64,000 nucleotides of DNA from Vicinamibacterales bacterium (GCA_035512575.1 DATKDT010000073.1:1519-65518), one strand, 5' to 3'; positions 7,615 to 63,941 are shown, numbered from the stretch's first letter. Translations and numbers: made by a program. The notes: generated by a model not told the origin, from the letters alone.

Positions 7615-8981
7615 AGCCGCGCATCCTCGTCATCGACGATGAGCAGGGCATCCGCGAGTCCATGCGGATGATCCTCGAATACGAAGGCTACGACGTCCTG
7701 CAGGCCGGATCGGCGCAGGAGGGCATGACGCTCCTCGCGCGCGAGCATCCGGATCTGGTGTTTCTGGACATCAAGATGCCCGGCATGGACGGGCTCGAAG
7801 CGCTCGGCCGCATCAGGGCGGCGCACGACGCGCTGCCGGTGGTGATCGTCTCGGGGCATGGCACCGTGAGCACGGCCGTCGAGGCGACGCGCAAGGGCGC
7901 GTTCGACTTCATCGAGAAGCCGCTCGAGCGCGAGCGCGTGCTGCTGACCATCCGCAACGCGCTCGACCAGAGCCGGCTGCGCGACGAGAACGTCACCCTG
8001 AAGCGCGCCGTCGAAGTGCGCCACCAGATGGTGGGCGAGAGCGCCGGCATGCGCGCCGTCATGGAGCAGGTCGGCCGCGCCGCGCCCAGCAACGCCACGG
8101 TGCTGATCCTGGGCGAGAGCGGCGTCGGCAAGGAGCTGATCGCCCGCGCTATCCACCGCAACTCCAACCGCGCGCGCGAACGGTTCGTGCAGGTCAACTG
8201 CGCGGCGATTCCCGAGGAGCTGATCGAGTCCGAGCTGTTCGGGCACGAGAAGGGATCGTTCACGGGCGCCACCGAGAAGCAGATCGGCAAGTTCGAGCAG
8301 GCCGACAAGGGCACGATCTTTCTCGACGAGGTCGGCGACATGAGTGCGAAGACGCAGGCCAAGGTGCTGCGCGTGCTGCAGGAAGGCGAGGTCGAGCGGC
8401 TCGGGTCGGCGCGCACCATCAAGGTCGACGTGCGCGTGATCGCGGCCACCAACAAGGATCTGGAAGAGGAGATCGCGCAGAACCGCTTCCGCGAGGACCT
8501 GTACTACCGGCTGAAGGTCATTCCGATTGCGGTGCCGCCGCTGCGCGATCGCCCGCAGGACACGCCGCTGCTCATCCGGCACTTCGCGGATCTGTTCAGC
8601 CGCGACAACAACCGCAAGCCCGCGCGCTTCACGCCCGCGGCCATGGACCTGCTGCAGAACCACCGCTGGAAGGGCAACGTGCGCGAGCTGCGCAACACCG
8701 TGGAGCGGCTGATCATCATGTCGCCCGGCGACACGGTGGACGTGCCCGACGTGCGCGGCGTGCTGCGCGTGGAGCCCGGCTCCAGCGCCGACCAGGCGCA
8801 GGGCGACAAGCCCGGTACGCTGCGCGGGTTCAAGGAAACGGCCGAGCGCGCGTTCCTAGTGGACAAGCTCCGCGAACACAACTGGAACATCTCGAAGACC
8901 GCCGAGGTCATCGACACGCCGCGCAGCAATCTCTACAAGAAGCTCGAGCAGTACGGGATCAAGCAAGAAGCGGACGGATAG
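7611..8981 (+). CDS. sigma-54-dependent response regulator (NtrC family)
   Basis: Receiver domain (ILVIDDE...LDIKMPGMDG). AAA+ sigma-54 interaction domain (GESGVGKE, ESELFGHEKGSFTGA, RVIAATN). C-terminal Fis-type HTH (NISKTAEVIDTPRSNLYKKL). ATGA overlap with the upstream protease gene. Confidence 0.9.
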   Translation: MKPRILVIDDEQGIRESMRMILEYEGYDVLQAGSAQEGMTLLAREHPDLVFLDIKMPGMDGLEALGRIRAAHDALPVVIVSGHGTVSTAVEATRKGAFDFIEKPLERERVLLTIRNALDQSRLRDENVTLKRAVEVRHQMVGESAGMRAVMEQVGRAAPSNATVLILGESGVGKELIARAIHRNSNRARERFVQVNCAAIPEELIESELFGHEKGSFTGATEKQIGKFEQADKGTIFLDEVGDMSAKTQAKVLRVLQEGEVERLGSARTIKVDVRVIAATNKDLEEEIAQNRFREDLYYRLKVIPIAVPPLRDRPQDTPLLIRHFADLFSRDNNRKPARFTPAAMDLLQNHRWKGNVRELRNTVERLIIMSPGDTVDVPDVRGVLRVEPGSSADQAQGDKPGTLRGFKETAERAFLVDKLREHNWNISKTAEVIDTPRSNLYKKLEQYGIKQEADG

Positions 8982-8986
8982 GGGCT

Positions 8987-9120
8987 GGTTGTCGGTTGTG
9001 GGTTGCCGGTTGTCGGTGTGAGCCGGCCGCCACAACGGGCGGCCGGCTAGTCTCGATTAGCCGCGCGAGCGTTGTGTCGCGTGGCTCTCACCGGCAACCG
9101 GTTACCGGCTACCGGCAACC
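8987..9120. repeat. inverted pair of 4 x 7-bp tandem arrays (GGTTGYS / GGYWACC) flanking a GC-rich hairpin
   Basis: 8987-9014 reads ggttgtc ggttgtg ggttgcc ggttgtc. 9093-9120 reads ggcaacc ggttacc ggctacc ggcaacc, the complementary units. The hairpin agccggccgcc/ggcggccggct lies at 9021-9048. Confidence 0.8.
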
Positions 9121-9142
9121 GACTGGTATCATTGACCTGCTG

Positions 9143-9569
9143 CAGTGATCCAGACAACCGCCCGCCGTAGCTCGCGCAAGCGAGCGAAGGTGGGAGGAAA
9201 GTCCGAACTCCGATGGGCAGTGCGCCGGGTAACGCCCGGTCAGGGCAACCTGAAGGACAGTGGCACAGAAAACACACCGCTGACGTCCGCCGCAAGGCGG
9301 GCAAGCAAGGGTGAAAAGGTGCGGTAAGAGCGCACCGCGCCGGCCGTAAGGCTCGGCGGCAGGCAAAACCCCGCACGGAGCAAGGCCAAATAGGGAAGTG
9401 TGGACCATAGCCCGCAAGGGCGATGGTCCAAAAGGACGGCCCGTCCGAGACTTCCGGGTAGGCTGCTCGAGCCTGGCAGTAATGCCAGGCCTAGAGGAAT
9501 GGTTGTCGTCCGCCGAAGCTGGCCGCAAGGCCAGCGTAGGTGGAACAGAATTCGGCTTACGGATCGCTG
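9143..9569 (+). ncRNA. rnpB: RNase P RNA, bacterial type A
   Basis: Conserved GGGAGGAAAGTCCG (about 9191), ACAGAAAACACACC, GGTAAGAGCGCACC and 3' ACAGAATTCGGCTTAC. P1 pairing links cagtgatcc (9143) with ggatcgctg (9561-9569). The overlapping ORFs are Arg-rich and not protein-like. Confidence 0.9.
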
Positions 9570-9589
9570 TAGCCTTACAATCTCCTTTC

Positions 9590-10780
9590 ATGCGTCAGCA
9601 CATCTGCGTTCTGGGCGCCGCCGCGCTCGTGGTCTCGACATCCGTGCTCGCAGGCCAGGGCCGCGGGCAGGGCCAGGGCGTGCCGCCGCTGCCCAATGGC
9701 GAGTGCCCGCCCGGGCATACCCTCGTGCGCATCGGGCGCTGCCAGGCGCCCGAGGTGCCGCCGCCCAGCATTCTCGACTACCGGCCGACATCCACGCTCG
9801 TCGTCGACGAGCATGTGGTTCCGAAGGCGAAGTTCCCGGTCGTCGACATCCACAGCCACCAGACGGCGACCGCCGGGAACATGCCGCAGCTGATCGCGGA
9901 GATGGACGCGCTGAACCTCCGTGTGCTCAACAATCTGAGCGGCGGCAGCGGCGCCGAGCTGAAGGCGAAAGTCGACACGATCCGCAGTAGCCCCTACAAG
10001 GACCGTTTCACCGTCTTCGCCAGTCCCGACTTCCGCGGCGTCGCGCCCGGCTGGGGCGCGAAAGCGGCCGCCCAGCTCGAGGAGGATGTGCGCAACGGCG
10101 CCATCGGCCTCAAGATCTTCAAGAACCTCGGCATGACAGCCACGCGGGCCGACGGCTCGCGCCTCGCCGTGGACGATGCGGAGCTCGATCCGCTCTGGGC
10201 GGCCGCCGGCCGGCTCAACGTGCCGGTGCTGATTCATGTCGGCGAGCCGCCGACCTTCTTCCAGCCGCCCGACTACACCAACGAGCGGTGGCTCGAGCTC
10301 GCGCTGTTTCCCAGCCGCCGCAACTACGATCCGTCGAAGGTGAAGTTCGAGCAGCTGATCGCCGAGCGCGATCGCATGTTCGCGAAGCACCCGAAGACGC
10401 GGTTCATCGCCGCGCATTTCGGCTATCACGGCCACGACCTGAAGACGGCCGCGGCGCTGCTCGATCGGCTGCCGAACGTCTATCTCGAAGTGGCGGCCGT
10501 GCTCTACGAATTCGGCCGCCAGCCGCGCACCGCCGCCGCCTTCTTCACGAAGTACCAGGATCGCGTGATGTTCGGCAAGGACACGTACGCGCCGGCGGAA
10601 TACCCGTATTACTGGCGCGTGTTCGAAACGGGCGACGAGTACTTCGACTATTACCGCGACTATCACGCGTTCTGGAAGCTGTACGGGATGGACCTGTCCG
10701 ACGCGGTGCTGCGCAAGCTGTATTACGGCACGGCGCTGGCCGTGACGCCCGGACTGCCGCGCGACGGATGGCCCCGCTAG
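9590..10780 (+). CDS. amidohydrolase-family (TIM-barrel metal hydrolase) protein, secreted
   Basis: In-frame ATG at 9590 (MRQHICVLGAAALVVSTSVLAGQ, signal peptide). VVDIHSHQ metal-binding start, LIHVGEP, and AAHFGYHGHD typical of Amidohydro_2-like proteins. Confidence 0.7.
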   Translation: MRQHICVLGAAALVVSTSVLAGQGRGQGQGVPPLPNGECPPGHTLVRIGRCQAPEVPPPSILDYRPTSTLVVDEHVVPKAKFPVVDIHSHQTATAGNMPQLIAEMDALNLRVLNNLSGGSGAELKAKVDTIRSSPYKDRFTVFASPDFRGVAPGWGAKAAAQLEEDVRNGAIGLKIFKNLGMTATRADGSRLAVDDAELDPLWAAAGRLNVPVLIHVGEPPTFFQPPDYTNERWLELALFPSRRNYDPSKVKFEQLIAERDRMFAKHPKTRFIAAHFGYHGHDLKTAAALLDRLPNVYLEVAAVLYEFGRQPRTAAAFFTKYQDRVMFGKDTYAPAEYPYYWRVFETGDEYFDYYRDYHAFWKLYGMDLSDAVLRKLYYGTALAVTPGLPRDGWPR

Positions 10781-26541: not shown

Positions 26542-26624
26542 GTAAAACGATGCTCCGGGCTAACGAATGCGCACGGCAGGGGCCCCGAGACCCTGCCGTG
26601 TGGCTGCCCTGCGCATCGTTTTAC
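26542..26624. repeat. ~83-nt hairpin element, copy 1
   Basis: Outer stem gtaaaacgatgc/gcatcgttttac. Inner stem cacggcaggg/ccctgccgtg around gccccgaga. Homologous to the reverse complement of 26759-26843. Confidence 0.75.
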
Positions 26625-26758: not shown

Positions 26759-26843
26759 GAAAAACTGCGCGCAGGGGCATCCTCACGGCTGGGTCTCGGG
26801 GCCCCAGCCGTGCAAGCTCGCTAGCCCCGGAGCGCAGTTTTTC
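26759..26843. repeat. ~85-nt hairpin element, copy 2 (inverted relative to copy 1)
   Basis: Outer stem gaaaaactgcgc/gcgcagtttttc. Inner stem cacggctggg/cccagccgtg. Both stems differ from copy 1 by compensated substitutions. Confidence 0.75.
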
Positions 26844-39158: not shown

Positions 39159-41579
39159 GTGTCCGCGCGTCATGTGTCTGTGGCGGTGCCGGTGCCCGGC
39201 CTGCCGCCGCTGACCTATCGCGTCCCCGCGCATCTTCCACTCCCCGAACCAGGAACCCGCGTGCTGGTGCCCGTGGGAACTCGAACCGTTACGGGCTGGG
39301 TCGTCCCTCCTGAACCGAACGGGGAACAGGGAACGGGGAACCTCAAGGAACTTCTCGAGGTTCTCGACCCCGAACCGCTGCTGCCGCGCGAAATCGTCGA
39401 CCTGGCGCTGTGGACGGCTGATTACTACCTTGCGGGTCCTGGCGAAGCGCTGGCCGCCGCGATGCCGCCGCAAAGCGCCGTCTTCTCACGGCGCGTCGTC
39501 AGCCTGACGGAGGTGGGCCGCGCCAACGAACTGCAGGTCGGCCTGCGCAGGCGCGCGCTCGATCTGCTCCGCGAGCACGACACGCTGGCGGTCGATTCGC
39601 TGATCAGGAGGCTCGAGGACCGGACGGCAAAAGGGGCGGTGGATGGGCTGCTGCGCGACGGCCTTGTCGCGATCTCGCAGCCGCTCGAAGGACGCCGCGA
39701 GGCGTTTCGCAGCGTGGCGCGCGTGCGCCTCACCGCGCTGGGCGACGATCCCGCCGTCACGCGCCCGAAGCGCCAGGGCGAGCTGCTCGCGCTGCTGCGG
39801 GGCACGCCCGACGGCCTGACCTCGCGCGAGCTCGACGCGAGAGGCATCGGCTGGGACGTCGCCAAACGCCTCGCCGCCTCGGGCCTGGCCGCGATCGATC
39901 AGGTGCGGATCGATCGGAATCCATTTAATGGGGACAGACCCCATTTTTCAGTTTCGGCAACACCGCGCGCGCTCACTGACGAACAGGTTGCCGCCGTCGA
40001 GACCCTGACGGCACTTCTCGCCGCCCGGGCCTTTGCCGTCGGCCTCCTGCACGGCGTCACCGGATCAGGCAAGACGGAGGTCTACCTCCGCCTCGCCGCG
40101 CGCGCGATGGAACAACAGCGCCGCGTGCTGATTCTCGTCCCCGAAATCGCGCTCACGCCGGCCGCCGCCGCGATCTTCCGCGCCGCGTTCGGCGATCGCG
40201 TCGCCATCCAGCACAGCGCCCTCTCGGACGGCGAGCGCCACGATCAGTGGCATCGCATCCGCCGCGGCGACGTCGACGTCGTCGTCGGCACCCGCTCCGC
40301 CGTGTTCGCGCCGCTGCCCAATGTGGGCCTAATTGTCGTGGACGAGGAGCACGACGGCTCCTTCAAGCAGGACGAGTCCCCCCGCTATCACGGCCGCGAC
40401 GTCGCGATCGTGCGGGCCCGCAATGCCGGCGCGCTGATCGTGCTTGGCTCCGCCACGCCCGCGCTCGAAACCTTCGAAAATGCCCGCCAGGGCCGGTATC
40501 GGCTGGTGACGATGGCGCGGAGGGTGATGGATCGGCCGCTGGCGGCGGTGCAGGTCGTGGACATGCAGGGGGAGTTCGCGGAGCGCGGCGCCGACATCGT
40601 CCTGAGCAGGCCGCTCGAGGAGGCGCTGAAGGCGCATCTTGCGCGCGGCGAGCAGGCGGTCGTGCTGCTGAACCGCCGCGGCTTCGCGACGCTGATGTTC
40701 TGCCGGCAGTGCGGCCACTCGCTCGAGTGTCCGAACTGCAGCCTGTCGCTGACCATTCACAAGGCCACGCGGCGGGCGCGCTGCCACTACTGCAACCACG
40801 CGGTGCCGCTGCCCAACAAGTGTGTCAAGTGCGGCGGCGAATTCATGGAGCAGAGCGGCTTCGGCACCGAGCGGGTCGAGGCCGAGATTCGGGCGCTGCT
40901 GCCCGATGCGCGTGTCACGCGCGTCGATCGCGACACGGTCCGCCGGCGGGGCGCCATCAGCGGCGTCCTCGAGGCGATGGCGGCGCGCAAAATCGACGTG
41001 CTCGTGGGCACGCAGATGATCGCGAAAGGGCACGACTTTCCTGAGGTGACGCTGGTGGGCGTCGTGTCGGCCGACGTCGGCCTCGGCATGCCCGACTTCA
41101 GGGCGGGGGAGCGCACGTTTCAGCTCTTGACACAGGTCTCGGGCCGGGCGGGCCGCGGCGACAAGCCGGGTCTGGCCATCGTGCAGACGCTGGTGCCGAA
41201 GCACTACGGCATCCAGCACGCGACACGTCAGGACTATCTTGGGTTTTTCGAGGACGAGATGACCTTCCGGCGCTCGATGCGGTATCCGCCCGCGGCGTCA
41301 CTGATCAATGTCGTCGTGCGTGGGCCGTCGGCGGGCGAGGCAATGGATCTCGCGGCCGACCTCGCGAAGCGCGTCCGTCAGGCGCCGTCGCCCGACATCC
41401 GCGTCCTCGGCCCCGCGCCCGCGCCGCTCGCGCGCATCAAGGGCGAGCACCGCGCGCAGTTCTTCATCAAGGGCACGGCGCGCGGCCGCATGCGCGACGC
41501 GCTGCGCGCGGCCGTCGAGGATCGCGCCGACGCGCGCCGGCGCATCAGCATCGACGTCGATCCACTGTCGGTGCTCTAG
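39159..41579 (+). CDS. priA: primosomal protein N' (replication restart helicase PriA)
   Basis: Walker A GVTGSGKTEVY and DEEHD. Zn-binding CRQCGHSLECPNC...CHYCNH...CVKCGG. C-terminal domain present. Confidence 0.9.
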   Translation: MSARHVSVAVPVPGLPPLTYRVPAHLPLPEPGTRVLVPVGTRTVTGWVVPPEPNGEQGTGNLKELLEVLDPEPLLPREIVDLALWTADYYLAGPGEALAAAMPPQSAVFSRRVVSLTEVGRANELQVGLRRRALDLLREHDTLAVDSLIRRLEDRTAKGAVDGLLRDGLVAISQPLEGRREAFRSVARVRLTALGDDPAVTRPKRQGELLALLRGTPDGLTSRELDARGIGWDVAKRLAASGLAAIDQVRIDRNPFNGDRPHFSVSATPRALTDEQVAAVETLTALLAARAFAVGLLHGVTGSGKTEVYLRLAARAMEQQRRVLILVPEIALTPAAAAIFRAAFGDRVAIQHSALSDGERHDQWHRIRRGDVDVVVGTRSAVFAPLPNVGLIVVDEEHDGSFKQDESPRYHGRDVAIVRARNAGALIVLGSATPALETFENARQGRYRLVTMARRVMDRPLAAVQVVDMQGEFAERGADIVLSRPLEEALKAHLARGEQAVVLLNRRGFATLMFCRQCGHSLECPNCSLSLTIHKATRRARCHYCNHAVPLPNKCVKCGGEFMEQSGFGTERVEAEIRALLPDARVTRVDRDTVRRRGAISGVLEAMAARKIDVLVGTQMIAKGHDFPEVTLVGVVSADVGLGMPDFRAGERTFQLLTQVSGRAGRGDKPGLAIVQTLVPKHYGIQHATRQDYLGFFEDEMTFRRSMRYPPAASLINVVVRGPSAGEAMDLAADLAKRVRQAPSPDIRVLGPAPAPLARIKGEHRAQFFIKGTARGRMRDALRAAVEDRADARRRISIDVDPLSVL

Positions 41580-41717
41580 CAGGCGTTACGTTGGCAAATT
41601 CTGCAACCCGCGTCACTCGGTCCGCCTGCAGGATCTGCGTCCCCTTCCACGTAGTCTCTGATTGCGCGGCGAATCCGCGAGTTAGCGTCCGGCACGCTGT
41701 TCGCAGAGTCCCCGCTT

Positions 41718-42711
41718 GTGGAGACTCCCGCGGGCCACAGCCGTGACCGGCCGCAGACTCTGCTCGCCGCCGTGCGGGCCAGCCTGCGCGCGAAGCACTA
41801 TTCGCCTCGCACAGAAGAGGCCTACGTTGGCTGGATTCGCCGGTTCATCCGGTTCCACGGGAGGCGCCATCCGCGCGAGATGGGCGAGACGGAGGTTGTG
41901 ACGTTTCTCTCATCCCTGGCCGTCGATGGTCATGTTGCGGCGTCGACGCAGAATCAGGCCCTGAGTGCGCTCATCTTTCTGTACGGCGACGTGTTGAACG
42001 TCGAGCTGGACTGGCTCCAGGGGCTTGTGCGAGCGAAGCGCCCCGAGCGCATCCCGGTTGTGCTGACGCGGGACGAAGTCGCCCGGCTTCTGTCCGAGCT
42101 GAATGGCACGGGGTGGTTGATGGCGTCGCTCATGTACGGCGCCGGCCTGCGGCTGCTCGAATGCGCGGAGTTGCGTATCAAGGATCTCGACCTGACGGCA
42201 CGTGAGATTCGTGTCCGCGACGGAAAGGGCCGCAAAGACCGTGTCACAGTCATTCCGGCCAGGCTTGTCGAGCCTCTAGCAGCGAAGCTGGCCGTCACTC
42301 GTGTGCTGCACGGCCGTGATATCGCCGCAGGCGCCGGCTGGGTGTCCCTGCCAGACGCGCTTGGGCGGAAGTTCCCTCGCGCGGGCCGTGAGATCGCGTG
42401 GCAGTGGTTGTTTCCCGCGACTCGGACGTACGTCGACAGGGAAACGGGTCAGCACCGCCGTCATCACCTTACACGAGTCGGTGCTCCAGCGGGCCGTTAA
42501 GGCAGCCGTTGAGCGCGCCGGTCTGACGAAGCGGGCAAGCTGCCATACGTTGCGGCACTCTTTCGCCACGCACCTGCTCGAGGCTGGCTACGATATCCGG
42601 ACGATTCAGGAACTGCTTGGGCATCGCGACGTGAGCACGACGATGATCTATACCCACGTGTTGAACAAGGGCGGGCGAGGCGTGAGGAGCCCTCTTGACG
42701 AGCTGAGATAG
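41718..42711 (+). pseudogene. intI: integron integrase, disrupted by a 1-nt frameshift near 42471
   Basis: ORFs 41718-42500 and 42301-42711 together read like IntI. Matches: HYSPRTEEAYVGWIRRFIRFHG, the IntI-specific patch [24 protein letters not shown]...[15 protein letters not shown], and [52 protein letters not shown]. An extra A between codons CTT and CAC breaks the frame. Confidence 0.9.
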
Positions 42712-42899
42712 CGCGCGCAACATATCCGACTACGCCGACCGGCCTAATCGACCGCTGCGTCTGTCGCCATATCGCCGCAAACCGCGGATTTGTCAGGGTT
42801 TGATTGACACCGGCCACGTGACGGAGCGCCTGTTTAGGCTGCGAGAGCGACCCGGATTGGCAAGTTACTATACGTTATGGAGTCCCAAATGAGGGTCCA

Positions 42900-43361
42900 A
42901 TGGGAGTGTCTTTAGTGCTTGTGTTCGCTCTGCTCGAGACGCTTGCGCCATCGCAGGTGCAAGCGGCGGCGCAAATTCGGACGCTTCGTGACCGATCGAA
43001 CGCGGCGATTGCTCGGCACGATGTGGAGGCTGTCCTGTCGTTCCTGGATGTTGAGTATCAGATCACCGCGGGAAGCGGGAGCCTCTCCAGCGGCCTCGCA
43101 GCAGAGCGTGAGATCTGGAAGGACACCTTTGCGCGCGCAGCTGATGTGGTGTATGTGCGTACCGCGGAATCGATCGAAGTGAGTTCGCCCGCCGTGAGCG
43201 CGGCCGAAATCGGTCGCTGGGTAGGCTCTTGGACGACGCCAGACGGAGTTCGTCGCACCGGTGGGCGCTACGCGGCACACTGGCGCTATGTGAACAGCGC
43301 GTGGAAGATTCGCTCCGAGCTCTTCGTGACGCTGTGGTGCGAAGGTCCCGGCTGCTCGTGA
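42900..43361 (+). CDS. cassette 1: secreted NTF2-like (SnoaL/DUF4440-like) protein
   Basis: Signal peptide. RHDVEAVLSFLD...W...GRYAAHWRYVNSAWKIRSELFV follows the pattern of NTF2-fold proteins. GAGGG Shine-Dalgarno 7 nt upstream. The stop lies 10 nt before attC. Confidence 0.65.
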   Translation: MGVSLVLVFALLETLAPSQVQAAAQIRTLRDRSNAAIARHDVEAVLSFLDVEYQITAGSGSLSSGLAAEREIWKDTFARAADVVYVRTAESIEVSSPAVSAAEIGRWVGSWTTPDGVRRTGGRYAAHWRYVNSAWKIRSELFVTLWCEGPGCS

Positions 43362-43370
43362 CGTTGGGCT

Positions 43371-43446
43371 CCCTAACATCGGCTTGCAGCCGACGGCGGC
43401 GCACGCAAGCATTGATGCCGCCGCGGCTGAAGCCGGCGCGTTAGGC
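43371..43446 (+). other. attC recombination site 1 (76 bp)
   Basis: R'' ccctaac and R' gttaggc. The arm ggctt(G)cagccg(A)cggcggc pairs with gccgccgcggctgaagcc, leaving two unpaired bases in the 5' arm. Confidence 0.8.
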
Positions 43447-43457
43447 GGTGCATTTTT

Positions 43458-44150
43458 ATGACGATCTACAGATACACGCCACAAGAGGCTTGGGTGAAAC
43501 ACGTCAAGCCCGCTCTAAATATAGCCGCGTGGATTGAGGATAGCTCGGCAGTGGGAACCGACATCGACTTGAGTAAGAGAGAGGTACTCTCCCTATTACT
43601 CATTGCTCACGTCCGGCGGGACCAGACCCAAGCGAACTGCCGCATTGGCTATGACACCGAGGGTGTAGAGCCGAATGACGGTTTTGTCGAAGGGAAGGAT
43701 GGGGCGATTCATGTAGAGAGCAAACTGGTCGCTCAATATGACGAGCGACCATTGCTCGACGCGATAAGGGAGACGTATGACAAGTACGAGGGACGCGGAC
43801 CTGCCTACGGAAGCGGCCGAGAACTAATGGTCTTCGCAAACCGCGCTAGCGACCGCCCCGGTCTGACCAGGGTATCGAGCTTACGCGATCACATCTTGAC
43901 CAGAAAAGAGTCGCCGTTCGATCGTGTGCTTCTTGCATACTGCCGTCCACATGGACCGCCGGGGACAATTAGCATTGGAGTAGTCGAAGCCTTTCCTGGC
44001 AAGGGATTCGCGCACGTCAACATCGACGTTACCTCTGGAGAAGCAGGGTTAAGGCTTGTCATTCCGTTCAGTGCCCCCGTCTCGCAAAGCTCCCCAGCCG
44101 ACGCCGACAAGCGGCGCGGCTCAACTTCAAGCATAGGCGGAAAACACTGA
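43458..44150 (+). CDS. cassette 2 gene A: hypothetical protein, possible PD-(D/E)xK nuclease-like core
   Basis: 230-aa ORF starting 12 nt after attC1. The segment EPNDGFVEGKDGAIHVESKLV fits a D...ExK pattern. No family recognised by eye. Lower GC. Confidence 0.6.
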   Translation: MTIYRYTPQEAWVKHVKPALNIAAWIEDSSAVGTDIDLSKREVLSLLLIAHVRRDQTQANCRIGYDTEGVEPNDGFVEGKDGAIHVESKLVAQYDERPLLDAIRETYDKYEGRGPAYGSGRELMVFANRASDRPGLTRVSSLRDHILTRKESPFDRVLLAYCRPHGPPGTISIGVVEAFPGKGFAHVNIDVTSGEAGLRLVIPFSAPVSQSSPADADKRRGSTSSIGGKH

Positions 44151-44175
44151 TGCAGCAGGCATCGGCCTAGAACAA

Positions 44176-44742
44176 ATGTGGTTATCAAAGACCGTTCCCG
44201 TATTCTTGGCAGGGATGTGGCCTGCCAAATTGCAACAACCGGGTAGCGGAACGAAGGTCGCAGTTCTGGATCGCGAAGGTGGAACGGTTCTCTTGCAGGG
44301 TTTCTCGGATGAGGCGGGTTTCTTTGTGGGTCGGTTGTCCGCGTCATGGATTGGAAAGCAAGTCTACATAGTCGTGCGGGAGGTGAGCTTCAAATACGAC
44401 TATTTCAATCCGCTGAAAGTAGAACGTTGGGGCTTGTTTCTAGCGGTACGCCAAGAGAAAGATCTCTTTTATAACGGTACCCAGGGTGCAAAATTGCTGG
44501 ATCCCCGAAGATGGGAAAGCTGGAACGCGACTGCCGAGCACATTAGAGCCTCCGCGGTCATAAACTCAGCAGCAAGGCGAGCCAAGATCGCTTGGCCCAT
44601 TCGTCAGGTGGGCCTGCTCGTAGCCGTAGCAGTTGGTGTCGCCGGCTTCGTCGTGCATCCAATAATAGGATTGGTATTGGGCGTCATAACGTATGGCGGC
44701 ACTGAGGTTCTTGCACATGTGTTGTTGCAGCGAGGGTACTAA
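44176..44742 (+). CDS. cassette 2 gene B: hypothetical protein with soluble N-terminal domain and two C-terminal TM helices
   Basis: 188-aa ORF 25 nt after gene A. C-terminal VGLLVAVAVGVAGFVVHPIIGLVLGVITYGG is hydrophobic. No family recognised by eye. Confidence 0.6.
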   Translation: MWLSKTVPVFLAGMWPAKLQQPGSGTKVAVLDREGGTVLLQGFSDEAGFFVGRLSASWIGKQVYIVVREVSFKYDYFNPLKVERWGLFLAVRQEKDLFYNGTQGAKLLDPRRWESWNATAEHIRASAVINSAARRAKIAWPIRQVGLLVAVAVGVAGFVVHPIIGLVLGVITYGGTEVLAHVLLQRGY

Positions 44743-44771
44743 CGCGAAATGGCACACGGCAAGCGGATACC

Positions 44772-44837
44772 GCCTAACATCACAGTGCACCGGACGCACG
44801 CAAGAACGGCGTGCGCCGGTGACTGTGAACGTTGGGC
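44772..44837 (+). other. attC recombination site 2 (66 bp)
   Basis: R'' gcctaac and R' gttgggc. The arm acagt(G)caccgg(A)cgcac pairs with gtgcgccggtgactgt. The TAACATC spacer and bulge positions are the same as in attC1. Confidence 0.8.
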
Positions 44838-45081
44838 GGACCAGGCCAGAGTCCACGATGTTCTTGGTTTCACTCATTGGCATGACCTTGCCGGTTTCTT
44901 GCCTTGCACTCGCGTAGGTGCTGGCTATTCCGTATGGCTAATGCTGGATGGTTTTCCTGTTGGTTCGAACGTCGCGGTAGCGATCACCGCGTACGATCTC
45001 GGCCCCAAGGTGCTGAAGGCGGATGCTCAGACCCAAAAGTGAGACCGGTCGCATTTTCCGATTGACGACCGATTAGGTCGG

Positions 45082-45139
45082 ATATAACATCCCTCGCTAG
45101 TTGAGAATGTTCTCAGTTAGCGAGGGATTGATGTTCCGG
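45082..45139 (+). other. long hairpin overlapping the Shine-Dalgarno/start of the TonB receptor; possibly a degenerate terminal attC
   Basis: The stem atccctcgcta...tagcgagggat (11 bp) encloses gagaa-tg-ttctc. It begins with ATAACATC, like the two attC sites, but has no bulges and a poor R' (gttccgg). Confidence 0.35.
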
Positions 45140-47569
45140 TCGAGTGCGTGCTGTCTTCTCCTCCTGACGTTCCTGGGTTCCGGCCCCGTTCAGGCCCAGT
45201 CGACAACGCCGACGGGCCTGGTCATCTCGCAATCGGGCGCCCCGGTGCCTGGCGCCGAGCTCACGATTCAGCCTTCCGGCGGCGCGGCATCGTTCGTCAC
45301 GGCTGACGTCACGGGCCGGTTCGACCTGACGATGCTGGCGCCGGGCGAGTATCGAATTTCCGTACGGGCCACCGGCTTCTCGCCCGTCACGGAACGGCTG
45401 ACCGTGCGAGCCGGCCAGCCGGCCGAGGTCACGCTGGTCCTGCCCGAAATCGTGCGCGAGCGCGTCGACGTGGTCGGGCACGCGAGCCTCCGCGACAAGA
45501 TCCCCGGCTCCGCGTGGGTGATCGACCGCGCCGAGATGGAAACCCTCACCGCCGCCACGGGCGACATCCACCGGATGCTGCGGCAGGTGCCCGGCCTGAA
45601 CGTCCAGGAAGAGGAGGGCTACGGCCTGCGCCCGAACATCGGGATGCGCGGCACCGGCACCGACCGCAGCAGCAAGATCACGATGATGGAGGACGGCGTG
45701 CTGATCGCCCCGGCGCCCTATTCGGCTCCGGCGGCCTATTACGCGCCCACGGCCGGGCGGATGGCATCGCTCGAAGTGCGGAAGGGATCGAGCCAGATCA
45801 AGTACGGCCCGATCACGACCGGCGGCGTGCTGAACTACGTCTCGACCAGCATCCCCTCGTCATTGCAGCTTCGCGGCACCGTGACGGCGGGCGCGCACGG
45901 CACCGGGAAGATCACCGCGGCCGCGGGCGACTCGTATCGCCACTTCGGCTGGCTCGCCGAGACGTTCCAGTTCCGCAGCAGCGGCTTCAAGCAACTCGAT
46001 GGCGGCGGCGACACCGGCGTCGAGCTCGCCGATTACCTGGTGAAGGTGCGCTTCAACACCACGCCGACGCCGATGTTCTATCAGGAACTGGAAATCAAGT
46101 TTGGCCGCACCGAGCAGCACGGCGACGAGACGTATCTCGGTCTCACCGACGCAGACTTTTCGACGTCGCCGCTGCGCCGGTATGCGGCCTCGCAGCAGGA
46201 CGTGATCGACACCTCCCACGAGCAGTATCAGGCGCGCCACTTCCTGGCGCGCGGCAACCTGGATCTGACCACGGTTGTGTACCGCAACAACTTCAGCCGC
46301 GCCTGGTACAAGCTGCAGAGCGTGCTGGGCGCGGGCCTGGGCGGCGTGCTCGCGGCGCCCGATCTCAACGCCGAGCGCATGGCCGTGCTCCTGGGCGGCG
46401 ACAGCCCGGCCGACGCCCTCACGGTGCGGAACAACAACCGCAGCTACTTCGGCGCGGGCGCGCAGTCGGTGCTGGGCCTGTCGCTCTCGGCCGGCGGCGT
46501 TCGACACCAGGTCGAAGCCGGCGTCCGCTATCACGAGGATGAGGAAGACCGCTTCCAGCAGGACGATCGCTACCGGATGCTCGGCGGACGCATGCTGCTC
46601 ACGCGGGCAGGCGCGCCCGGCAGCCAGGACAACCGCGTCGTCGGGGCTCGCGCCGTCGCCGGGTTCGTGTCGGACACCATCAGCCGGGGACGGTGGAGCG
46701 TCTCGCCGGGCCTTCGCTACGAAACGATCGATTTGAATCAGACGTCGTATGCGCTGACCGATCCGGCGCGGGGCGGCAATCCGGCGGTTGTTTCCACGGA
46801 GGTCGACGCGCTGATCCCCGGCATCGGCGCGAGCTTCGATCTTCGTCCGGACGCGAGCCTCTTCGGCGGCGTGCACAAGGGGTTCGCCCCGCCCGGGCCG
46901 GGCGCGGCCGAGGGCACCGAGGTCGAGCACAGCGTCAATTACGAGCTCGGTACGCGCGTCCGGCGCAGCGGCCTGCGCGCTGAAGTCATCGGCTTTTTCA
47001 ACGACTACGGCAACCTGCTCGGCCGCGATACGCTCGCGACAGGCGGGACCGGCGACGGGCGGCTGTTCAACGGCGGGAAGGCGCAGGTCTACGGCCTCGA
47101 GACGGCCGTGCAGTGGAATCCCGCGCCCGCGCTCGGGCTTCGGTCAGGTCTGCCCATGCGCCTGGCGTACACGCTGACCCACGCGGAATTCCGCAACACG
47201 TTTCAGAGCCGGTTCGGGCCGTGGGGCAACGTGCGCATCGGCGACGAGCTGCCGTACGTCCCGCGCCACCAGCTCTATGCCAGCATCGAAACGGATCATC
47301 AGTCGTGGCGGGCCCGGCTCGACGGGTATTACGTGGGCCGCATGCGGACGCTGGCGGGCCAGGGCGCGTATGCCGCCGCCGACTCCACCGACGCGCACGT
47401 GGTCATCAATGCGTCGGGAGAGTACGTGCTGACCGGCGGAGCGACGCTGTTTGCGAGCGTGCAGAATCTCGCCGACAGCTCCTACATCGTGGCGCGCCAT
47501 CCGGCCGGCGTCAGGCCCGGGTTGCCGCGCTCGTTCCAGGCGGGTCTCAGAATCGGCCTGGGTCGATAG
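45131..47569 (+). CDS. TonB-dependent outer-membrane receptor with N-terminal carboxypeptidase-regulatory-like domain
   Basis: Start at ATG 45131 (MFRSSACCLLLLTFLGSGPVQAQ). CarboxypepD_reg-like GLVISQSGAPVPGAELTI...GEYRISV. The plug includes IDRAEM...GLNVQEE, a long beta-barrel follows, and the C-terminus ends LRIGLGR. Confidence 0.85.
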   Translation: MFRSSACCLLLLTFLGSGPVQAQSTTPTGLVISQSGAPVPGAELTIQPSGGAASFVTADVTGRFDLTMLAPGEYRISVRATGFSPVTERLTVRAGQPAEVTLVLPEIVRERVDVVGHASLRDKIPGSAWVIDRAEMETLTAATGDIHRMLRQVPGLNVQEEEGYGLRPNIGMRGTGTDRSSKITMMEDGVLIAPAPYSAPAAYYAPTAGRMASLEVRKGSSQIKYGPITTGGVLNYVSTSIPSSLQLRGTVTAGAHGTGKITAAAGDSYRHFGWLAETFQFRSSGFKQLDGGGDTGVELADYLVKVRFNTTPTPMFYQELEIKFGRTEQHGDETYLGLTDADFSTSPLRRYAASQQDVIDTSHEQYQARHFLARGNLDLTTVVYRNNFSRAWYKLQSVLGAGLGGVLAAPDLNAERMAVLLGGDSPADALTVRNNNRSYFGAGAQSVLGLSLSAGGVRHQVEAGVRYHEDEEDRFQQDDRYRMLGGRMLLTRAGAPGSQDNRVVGARAVAGFVSDTISRGRWSVSPGLRYETIDLNQTSYALTDPARGGNPAVVSTEVDALIPGIGASFDLRPDASLFGGVHKGFAPPGPGAAEGTEVEHSVNYELGTRVRRSGLRAEVIGFFNDYGNLLGRDTLATGGTGDGRLFNGGKAQVYGLETAVQWNPAPALGLRSGLPMRLAYTLTHAEFRNTFQSRFGPWGNVRIGDELPYVPRHQLYASIETDHQSWRARLDGYYVGRMRTLAGQGAYAAADSTDAHVVINASGEYVLTGGATLFASVQNLADSSYIVARHPAGVRPGLPRSFQAGLRIGLGR

Positions 47570-63854: not shown

Positions 63855-63941
63855 TGGTGCGGAAGAGAGGACTCGAACCTCCACCCGGTTGCCCGGACTA
63901 GCTCCTGAGGCTAGCGCGTCTGCCAATTCCGCCACTTCCGC
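63855..63941 (-). tRNA. tRNA-Leu (anticodon CAG), long variable arm, CCA encoded
   Basis: The reverse complement is GCGGAAGTGGCGGAATTGGCAGACGCGCTAGCCTCAGGAGCTAGTCCGGGCAACCGGGTGGAGGTTCGAGTCCTCTCTTCCGCACCA. Acceptor stem GCGGAAG/CTTCCGC, anticodon loop CTCAGGA, and T-loop GGTTCGAGTCC. Confidence 0.9.

Follow-up and report, generated by a model that had tools for sequence, protein, structure and literature searches.

The integron of Treponema denticola is the classic example of the inverted-integrase integrons, in which the integrase gene intI lies upstream of the gene cassettes on the top strand of the cassettes and their attC sites. Two integron arrangements are already known, the second of which carries this name (PMC13323075; PMC3575428), and passages of these two papers attribute the group to the classification of Boucher et al. 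2007. Inverted IntI proteins form a sub-clade of a soil/freshwater clade, and attC sites of Acidobacteria have already been modelled (PMC8352920; PMC9176274). Both the inverted-integrase arrangement and Acidobacteria integrons are thus already published, and only the individual locus described here is new. We analyzed a stretch of 64,000 nucleotides, referred to in its whole length as the window, from a metagenome-assembled genome (MAG) of the Vicinamibacterales (Acidobacteriota). We are highly confident that positions 41718-44837 of the window represent a real small chromosomal integron of the inverted-integrase (co-oriented) type. The order on the + strand is priA, intI, attI region, cassette 1 with attC1, cassette 2 with attC2, and a gene for a TonB-dependent receptor, and the core integron elements are confirmed at the coordinates in Table 1, well above chance. 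The original prediction for this DNA had placed a chromosomal integron between priA and the receptor gene, and family models, an attC model, and 44 related loci all agree with it.

The locus resembles the inverted-integrase group in the position and strand of intI and in an IntI that clusters with co-oriented IntI proteins; unlike the described examples it has a Vicinamibacterales host, a tiny array with two attC sites, and a frameshifted intI. One of its four closest relatives is the integron in the complete genome of Luteitalea sp. TBR-22 (AP024452.2; locus L171), a genus that we take to belong to the Vicinamibacteria. The Luteitalea IntI is 76% identical to that of the window and its gene is likewise co-oriented with the array; also shared are the attI core GTTACTAYACG|TT, the TAGGCTGCG block upstream of it, and a sigma-54-like element before intI. 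L171 differs in having an intact intI, at least 10 attC sites that score 50-60 bits and are all 75 nt long, toxin-antitoxin cassettes plus an insertion sequence, and a location downstream of DUF4440 and SelA-like genes instead of priA.

More distant systems share fewer of these properties. Class 1 integrons have the same integrase family and the G|TT crossover, and the attC plan is common to the window and to class 1 sites such as that of aadA7: RYYYAAC and GTTRRRY boxes, 8 nt to the first extrahelical base, and 6 bp from there to the second. In aadA7 the first bulged base of the bottom strand is G, whereas in the window it is C. Class 1 differs further in its divergent intI1, the cassette promoter Pc inside intI1, LexA control, and carriage on transposons and plasmids; the window integron is chromosomal and co-oriented and yielded no sigma-70 Pc. 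In Xanthomonas, for example, there are chromosomal integrons whose integrase has been inactivated. The locus is like these in its position by housekeeping genes, its disabled intI, and its presumably static array, and unlike the Xanthomonas type in phylum, in orientation, and in having only one disabling mutation. The large sedentary chromosomal integrons of the Vibrio type also sit among housekeeping genes, but they carry tens of near-identical attC sites, as opposed to two sites of 76 and 66 nt with differing stems, and the chromosomal site of the window integron is not a shared one (0 of 80 priA relatives at 66% identity or less; the four closest integrons lie elsewhere). Taken alone, the locus is one more small, probably inactive environmental chromosomal integron, of a type catalogued by IntegronFinder-based surveys.

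The integrase gene and its frameshift

The original prediction correctly called intI on the + strand and missed that the gene is not intact or translatable as assembled. An extra A at 42471 causes a +1 frameshift, and translation runs into a stop at 42500. When this base was removed, a product of 330 amino acids (aa) was obtained that aligned with its relatives without gaps, and the peptide across the repaired junction was identical to that of four intact relatives (L001, L002, L010, and L011). The repaired product matched the TIGR02249 'integron integrase' model over positions 2-315 of 315 at 459.5 bits (cutoff 265), contained the Pfam domains PF13495 and PF00589, and included the IntI-specific additional segment. 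Models for the Xer recombinases XerC, XerD, and XerA gave 140-172 bits with the same protein, far under their own cutoffs. The true start of the gene is probably the conserved GTG at 41772.

The truncated protein retains the first catalytic Arg and the Lys, but the HxxR, His, and Tyr residues are missing. The deposited NCBI protein P0095, a 242-aa product annotated as 'integron integrase' on a Vicinamibacterales contig of 71,143 bp, matches the N-terminal frame with 100% identity; its truncation at 242 aa indicates that the deposited assembly has the same intI defect. Because IntI ends short of its nucleophile, both cassettes are in all likelihood frozen. As assembled, the integron would have lost its integrase activity, and the platform would be unable to recombine on its own.

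Two attC sites on the integrase strand

Relatives of the integrase were gathered with one genome per species, giving 80 loci. To train an attC model we chose hairpins carrying two single-base bulges at a spacing of 6-8 nt. An alignment of 21 short hairpins of this kind, all from loci other than the window, served to build a covariance model, R1, with which the window was scored with filters off. In the hand-drawn structure of R1 85% of the cells were paired, covariation was greater than in 500 of 500 shuffles, and sliding the pairing made it collapse. Both sites named in the original prediction were scored by R1 on the + strand (Table 1). The - strand scored 20.9 bits at 44772-44837 and 17.7 bits at 43371-43446, so that the + strand has an advantage of 28-39 bits, in keeping with the predicted match between attC polarity and the direction of the open reading frames (ORFs). 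No third attC site was found in the window, the next best R1 match reaching 15.7 bits (E 0.09). A third site between ORF2 and ORF3 or after attC2 was ruled out, the best match nearby being a partial one of 14.7 bits (E 0.16). The integron therefore has exactly two attC sites, whose top strand is the + strand.

The same two sites were recovered by other means. A scan for AAC...GTT hairpins over both strands of the whole 64-kb window ranked 44772-44837 first and 43371-43446 second. When the bottom (-) strands were folded as single-stranded DNA, attC1 gave -27.7 kcal/mol (z = -3.85) and attC2 -25.7 kcal/mol (z = -7.10), and none of 200 shuffles folded as well. The folded strands display a bulged T and a bulged C, each a single base, 6 bp apart in the 3' arm; on the top strand of attC1 the extrahelical bases are G and A (C and T on the bottom strand), and attC2 has the same bulge geometry with a different stem. 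A top-strand G at the first bulge, that is, a bottom-strand C, is present in many of the relatives' attC sites, and both sites carry the bulge pattern and the TGCAnCnGAC motif of Acidobacteria relatives such as L010. The first site lies 660 nt past the intI stop, within the distance of about 4 kb expected of a complete integron in the IntegronFinder sense.

Orientation of intI and array in related loci

We next compared the orientation of arrays among the relatives, where R1 detected 171 sites in the 80 loci. The attC sites lay only downstream of intI and on its strand in 19 of the 80, only upstream and on the opposite strand in 21, and no locus was mixed. The four closest loci (L170, L171, L173, and L174) are all co-oriented, which brings the totals to 23 co-oriented and 21 classical, with no mixed case among 44 loci. 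Co-oriented loci came from Eisenbacteria, Acidobacteriota, Gemmatimonadota, Nitrospirota, Planctomycetota, Omnitrophota, and others, and classical loci mostly from Proteobacteria. A midpoint-rooted neighbour-joining tree of the 80 relatives plus the window splits the two arrangements and places the window among the co-oriented integrases, including those of Planctomycetia and Omnitrophota. The strand-specific attC scores and the co-oriented relatives thus bear out the predicted co-orientation of intI with the cassettes and its assignment to the inverted-integrase type. Co-orientation is the rule in this integrase lineage. The comparative use of the locus lies in the clean match between co-orientation and the integrase tree among the nearest relatives, and in the co-orientation found as a rule in the sampled loci of Acidobacteriota, Gemmatimonadota, Eisenbacteria, and Planctomycetota.

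Closer IntI relatives in the protein database are 76-84% identical to the window protein. The four closest integrons are located at four other chromosomal sites: L170 lies after rpoBC, L171 after the DUF4440 and SelA-like genes, L173 after a chromate transporter gene, and L174 after a YCII gene. These positions indicate that the platform is not fixed at one locus in the lineage. Their attC counts are at least 10 (at least 10-12) in L170 and L171, four in L173, and one in L174, which is a short contig. L170 also contains, right after rpoBC and upstream of its intact intI, a 51-aa Phage_integrase fragment and three small ORFs (7678-9718), which may be a second, decayed integron in tandem.

The attI region

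The DNA past the intI stop of the window was aligned with that of L170 and L171, after which L173 and L174 were added. Three conserved blocks were apparent in these alignments: ATATCCGACTACnCnGACCGGCCTAAT just past the intI stop, TAGGCTGCGnGAG, and, about 40 nt further on, GCRRGTTACTAYACGTT. The last block is invariant in five of five loci; conservation continues through GTTACTAYACGTT and is lost immediately after, the sequences directly beyond it reading ATGGAG, GGGCGG, AGGCAG, AGGCCG, and AGCCTG. Pairwise identity is 65-80% over the 20 columns that precede the G and drops to 33-44% over the 50 that follow the TT. The comparative boundary is GTTACTATACG|TT in all five loci, with an invariant core GTTACTAYACG|TT. 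Because similarity is lost right after the invariant block, we place the attI crossover at G|TT, 42874|42875, 25 nt before the ATG of ORF1. The original prediction had proposed gtttaggc at 42832-42839 as the crossover; the octamer is present at that position, but it belongs to the conserved upstream block TAGGCTGCGnGAG.

An unsupervised motif search in 19 other co-oriented loci returned a junction of the form TCTAATTATC|GTTAGGCCGA. Its best match in the window, at 42864, falls on the junction given by the alignments but has a weak score of 4.3 nats, and gtttaggc is outside the top six window matches. Because of this weak score, the attI call is based on the alignments with L170, L171, L173, and L174. 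The comparison defines for the Vicinamibacteria lineage the attI core given above together with its conserved upstream blocks. By analogy with attI1, the conserved TAGGC block may act as an accessory repeat for integrase binding. The two upstream blocks (42722-42748 and 42835-42847), found at the same positions in L170, L171, L173, and L174, resemble an inverse-core plus core site; they may serve as accessory integrase-binding sites or as a promoter.

How such an array would be mobilized follows from established integron biology, from which the insertion and excision chemistry is taken. IntI would bind the folded bottom strand of attC, here the - strand, and recombination of this strand with double-stranded attI at the crossover would insert a cassette beside attI; recombination between two attC sites would excise one. 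The cassette genes would be read from upstream. With IntI truncated by the one-base insertion before HxxR, His, and Tyr, the cassettes would stay frozen unless an integrase acted in trans.

Cassettes and base composition

The original prediction described small ORFs separated by attC sites. This holds for ORF1 and ORF2, which attC1 separates; ORF2 and ORF3 share cassette 2, with a gap of 25 nt and no attC within it, so that there are two cassettes and not three. All three credible small ORFs are on the + strand. A further 97-aa ORF that runs across attC2 (44749-45042) has no family, is alone in its own cluster, and is probably spurious. Homologues of ORF2 and ORF3 are rare: 12 and 24, respectively, were found among 5.8 billion proteins, and they occur in unrelated contexts. 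Because ORF2 and ORF3 are 25 nt apart without an attC and their families are never adjacent elsewhere, cassette 2 most likely arose from two former cassettes by loss of the attC between them. A two-gene system, such as a defence or toxin-antitoxin pair, was ruled out for ORF2 and ORF3, the homologues never being neighbours elsewhere.

Pfam and NCBIfam gave nothing for ORF2 or ORF3, and neither PADLOC nor PHROGs returned a match for any of the four ORFs. The conserved EPNDG..ExK...Q of ORF2 is reminiscent of a PD-(D/E)xK nuclease; we do not claim this assignment, as the fairly confident AlphaFold model of ORF2 (mean predicted local confidence, pLDDT, 79.8) had no match in the PDB at an E-value of 1e-3 or better. 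An ORF3 homologue in L168 (GCA_043754575.1, 6024-8700) and L169 has an attC site (35.4 bits) behind it and, ahead of it on the same strand, a 199-aa Phage_integrase fragment and a 293-aa unassigned ORF. The arrangement resembles a further small integron of the co-oriented type, with two ORFs in one cassette.

The G+C content decreases stepwise across the integron, from 0.67-0.73 in the flanks (priA and the receptor gene) to 0.64-0.67 in intI, 0.59-0.64 over ORF1, and 0.52-0.58 from 43400 to about 45050. These values agree with the G+C contents counted by hand in the original prediction, and the cassettes are thereby supported as foreign in composition. The ORF families are rare and patchy and occur in none of the 80 priA relatives, indicating that the cassette ORFs are not conserved core genes. 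Neither of the two outcomes that would have spoken against the original prediction, an attC model that does not score the two sites and cassette ORFs that belong to the core genome, was thus observed.

Chromosomal setting

The integron sits among housekeeping genes, after coaBC, udg, and priA and before the receptor gene. For comparison, metagenomes were scanned with the C-terminus of PriA, yielding 80 loci, all of them distant (66% identity or less). The order coaBC-udg-priA is kept in these metagenomic relatives and synteny stops after priA: at this level of identity, none of the 80 has intI, the cassette ORFs, or the TonB receptor gene after priA, and an empty priA-receptor junction was not found among them. 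Exact-sequence look-ups with PriA, ORF1, and ORF2 matched no contig, and ORF3 alone gave one, a 1395-bp contig from an independent Logan assembly (SRR8556377) that is 100% identical to 43676-45070. The identity, which ends 30 nt short of the receptor gene, supports the join from cassette 2 across attC2 into the DNA ahead of that gene. The window also contains a bacterial RNase P class A RNA (9142-9574, +, 269 bits) and a tRNA-Leu(CAG) (63855-63941, -), ordinary housekeeping RNA genes that fit a chromosomal contig.

Alternative explanations

Several points weigh against reading the locus as a decayed co-oriented integron. R1 is a home-made model and its E-values are rough, and the neighbour-joining tree has no support values. 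The frameshift is known from one metagenome assembly, so that an assembly error is possible. No cassette promoter was found, nor any sigma-70-type site between intI and ORF1. The junction with the receptor gene is independently assembled only to 45070, and the left junction with priA is without independent assembly support. One alternative is that the integron is the same but functional, the extra A at 42471 being an artefact of assembly or sequencing, or else a minority variant, with full-length IntI still made. A single MAG is the source, and the rest of intI is intact: all catalytic motifs are in the repaired frame, the score is far above the family cutoff, and a comparison with intact relatives at 83-84% identity shows no further stop or indel. 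The frameshift site, caccttacacgag, is no homopolymer, however, and the assembly, judged from the k141_ naming of sister contigs, is probably a short-read one, in which single-base indels are uncommon. The deposited record P0095 is equally truncated, and the array is unusually short (two attC sites compared to at least 10-12 in the intact L170 and L171), which fits a decaying platform. We consider a functional integrase gene unlikely.

Two other explanations question the integron itself. The low-G+C cassettes could come from another organism's integron and have been joined to this contig in a chimeric assembly via a conserved attI or attC. Cassette arrays are hard to assemble, most intI and ORF3 homologues are on very short contigs, and the G+C drop of about 15 points falls exactly at the cassettes; integrons, though, normally show such a contrast between host and cassettes, the Logan contig bridges cassette 2 and attC2 without a mismatch, and both attC sites share the bulge pattern and TGCAnCnGAC with Acidobacteria relatives such as L010. 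A chimera is thus very improbable. Least credible of all, to the point of being negligible, is that there is no such integron, either because a Xer-type or phage tyrosine recombinase lies by unrelated hairpins (terminators or REP-like elements) or because a divergent integron was misread as to strand. The XerC, XerD, and XerA models do match the protein and G+C-rich genomes abound in hairpins, but only the integron-integrase model passes its cutoff, the IntI-specific segment is present, the attC model gives E-values of 1e-9 to 4e-13 with its clear preference for the + strand, and the three credible ORFs are on that strand as well.

Expression and a sigma-54-like element

A scan of 41400-45300 for sigma-70 promoters and terminators gave no more matches than shuffles, and no convincing intrinsic terminator was found between intI and the cassettes. 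Given that neither a sigma-70 promoter nor a convincing terminator was detected there, read-through from intI would be the simplest possible route to cassette expression.

Upstream of intI is a sequence resembling a sigma-54 -24/-12 element. Equivalent elements matching at least 10 of 12 positions occur in all four closest relatives. In each of the five loci the distance to the conserved HYSxRTE codons is 97-107 nt, and the surrounding DNA is unalignable. The form common to the five loci is (T/C)GGCAC(G/C)-N4-T(C/G)GC(A/T), and TGGCACGGCTCTCGCT is the putative sigma-54-like sequence upstream of the Luteitalea sp. TBR-22 intI. As background, 83 of 8594 windows of 240 nt (approximately 1%) reach 10/12. 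None of the other co-oriented or classical loci scanned reached 10/12, the best being L017 at 9/12, and no paper linking intI to sigma-54 was found in the literature searched. The element is a lead, a consensus match in five related sequences rather than evidence of function. We raise, with considerable doubt, the proposal that co-oriented intI genes of the Vicinamibacteria lineage are transcribed from an enhancer-dependent sigma-54 promoter and that intI and the cassettes form one environmentally signalled transcription unit. A single unit would be possible because intI is followed on its own strand by attI and the cassettes, with neither a sigma-70 Pc nor a convincing intrinsic terminator detected between them. 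If the proposal were true, control by environmental signals would replace the SOS/LexA-controlled divergent PintI/Pc pair of classical integrons. Luteitalea sp. TBR-22, with a complete genome, the same platform, and an intact intI, is a relative in which both recombination and the sigma-54 lead could be studied if the strain can be obtained.

Features of the locus and minor observations

Table 1. Features of the integron and its flanks in the window, with the sigma-54-like elements of the four closest relatives (positions in the respective loci).
Feature	Position	Strand	Basis or remarks
priA, left chromosomal flank	39159-41579	+	TIGR00595, 605.8 bits; PriA_3primeBD, PriA_C, Zn_ribbon_PriA
Sigma-54-like -24/-12 element	41690-41705	+	CGGCACGCTGTTCGCA; TGGCACG-N4-TTGCW, 10/12 positions
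intI, frameshifted as assembled	41718-42711	+	Frame 1, 41718-42500, to stop; C-terminal part in other frame, to 42711
Extra A (ctt-a-cac), cause of frameshift	42471	+	Sequence, after RRHHL; removal restores junction
attI region, about 160 nt	42722-42880	+	Conserved blocks ATATCCGACTACGCCGACCGGCCTAAT (42722-42748), TAGGCTGCGAGAG (42835-42847), GCAAGTTACTATACG|TT (42860-42876)
Cassette 1, 566 bp	42875-43440	+	Bounds: attI crossover, attC1 R'
ORF1, 153 aa, DUF4440/SnoaL-like	42900-43361	+	Pfam PF14534, E 7e-7; N-terminal signal-like segment
attC1, 76 nt	43371-43446	+	R'' CCCTAAC, R' GTTAGGC; R1 45.9 bits, E 1.3e-9
Cassette 2, 1391 bp, two ORFs	43441-44831	+	No attC between ORFs
ORF2, 230 aa, function unassigned	43458-44150	+	Invariant EPNDG..ExK in family
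ORF3, 188 aa, function unassigned	44176-44742	+	ORF list; hydrophobic C-terminus
attC2, 66 nt	44772-44837	+	R'' GCCTAAC, R' GTTGGGC; R1 59.5 bits, E 4e-13
Trailing low-G+C segment without attC	44832-45100		G+C about 0.57; no further attC
TonB-dependent receptor gene, right flank	45101-47569	+	Plug, TonB_dep_Rec_b-barrel, CarboxypepD_reg; TIGR01783
Sigma-54-like element, L170	9973-9988		
Sigma-54-like element, L171	9937-9952		
Sigma-54-like element, L173	9922-9937		
Sigma-54-like element, L174	9921-9936		

The segment between the second cassette and the receptor gene represents either what remains of a cassette or DNA that belongs upstream of the receptor gene itself. The real start of the receptor gene is likely the ATG at 45131 rather than the listed 45101. 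Just 5' of this probable start, which opens a signal peptide MFRSSACCLLLL, is a palindrome, CCCTCGCTA-N17-TAGCGAGGG, that looks like an operator or a leader hairpin; it directly follows a promoter-like TTGACG-17-TAACAT (45062-45090) and has GAGAA/TTCTC in its loop, the whole arrangement covering 45062-45126.

Rfam gave no family matches in the integron region. Elsewhere in the window, two hairpins of approximately 84 nt, GTAAAAC...GTTTTAC at 26542-26624 and GAAAAAC...GTTTTTC at 26759-26843, have no further copies in the 64 kb and no Rfam match. They are mutually inverted copies, spaced 135 nt apart, with a 39-nt core that is 90% identical.

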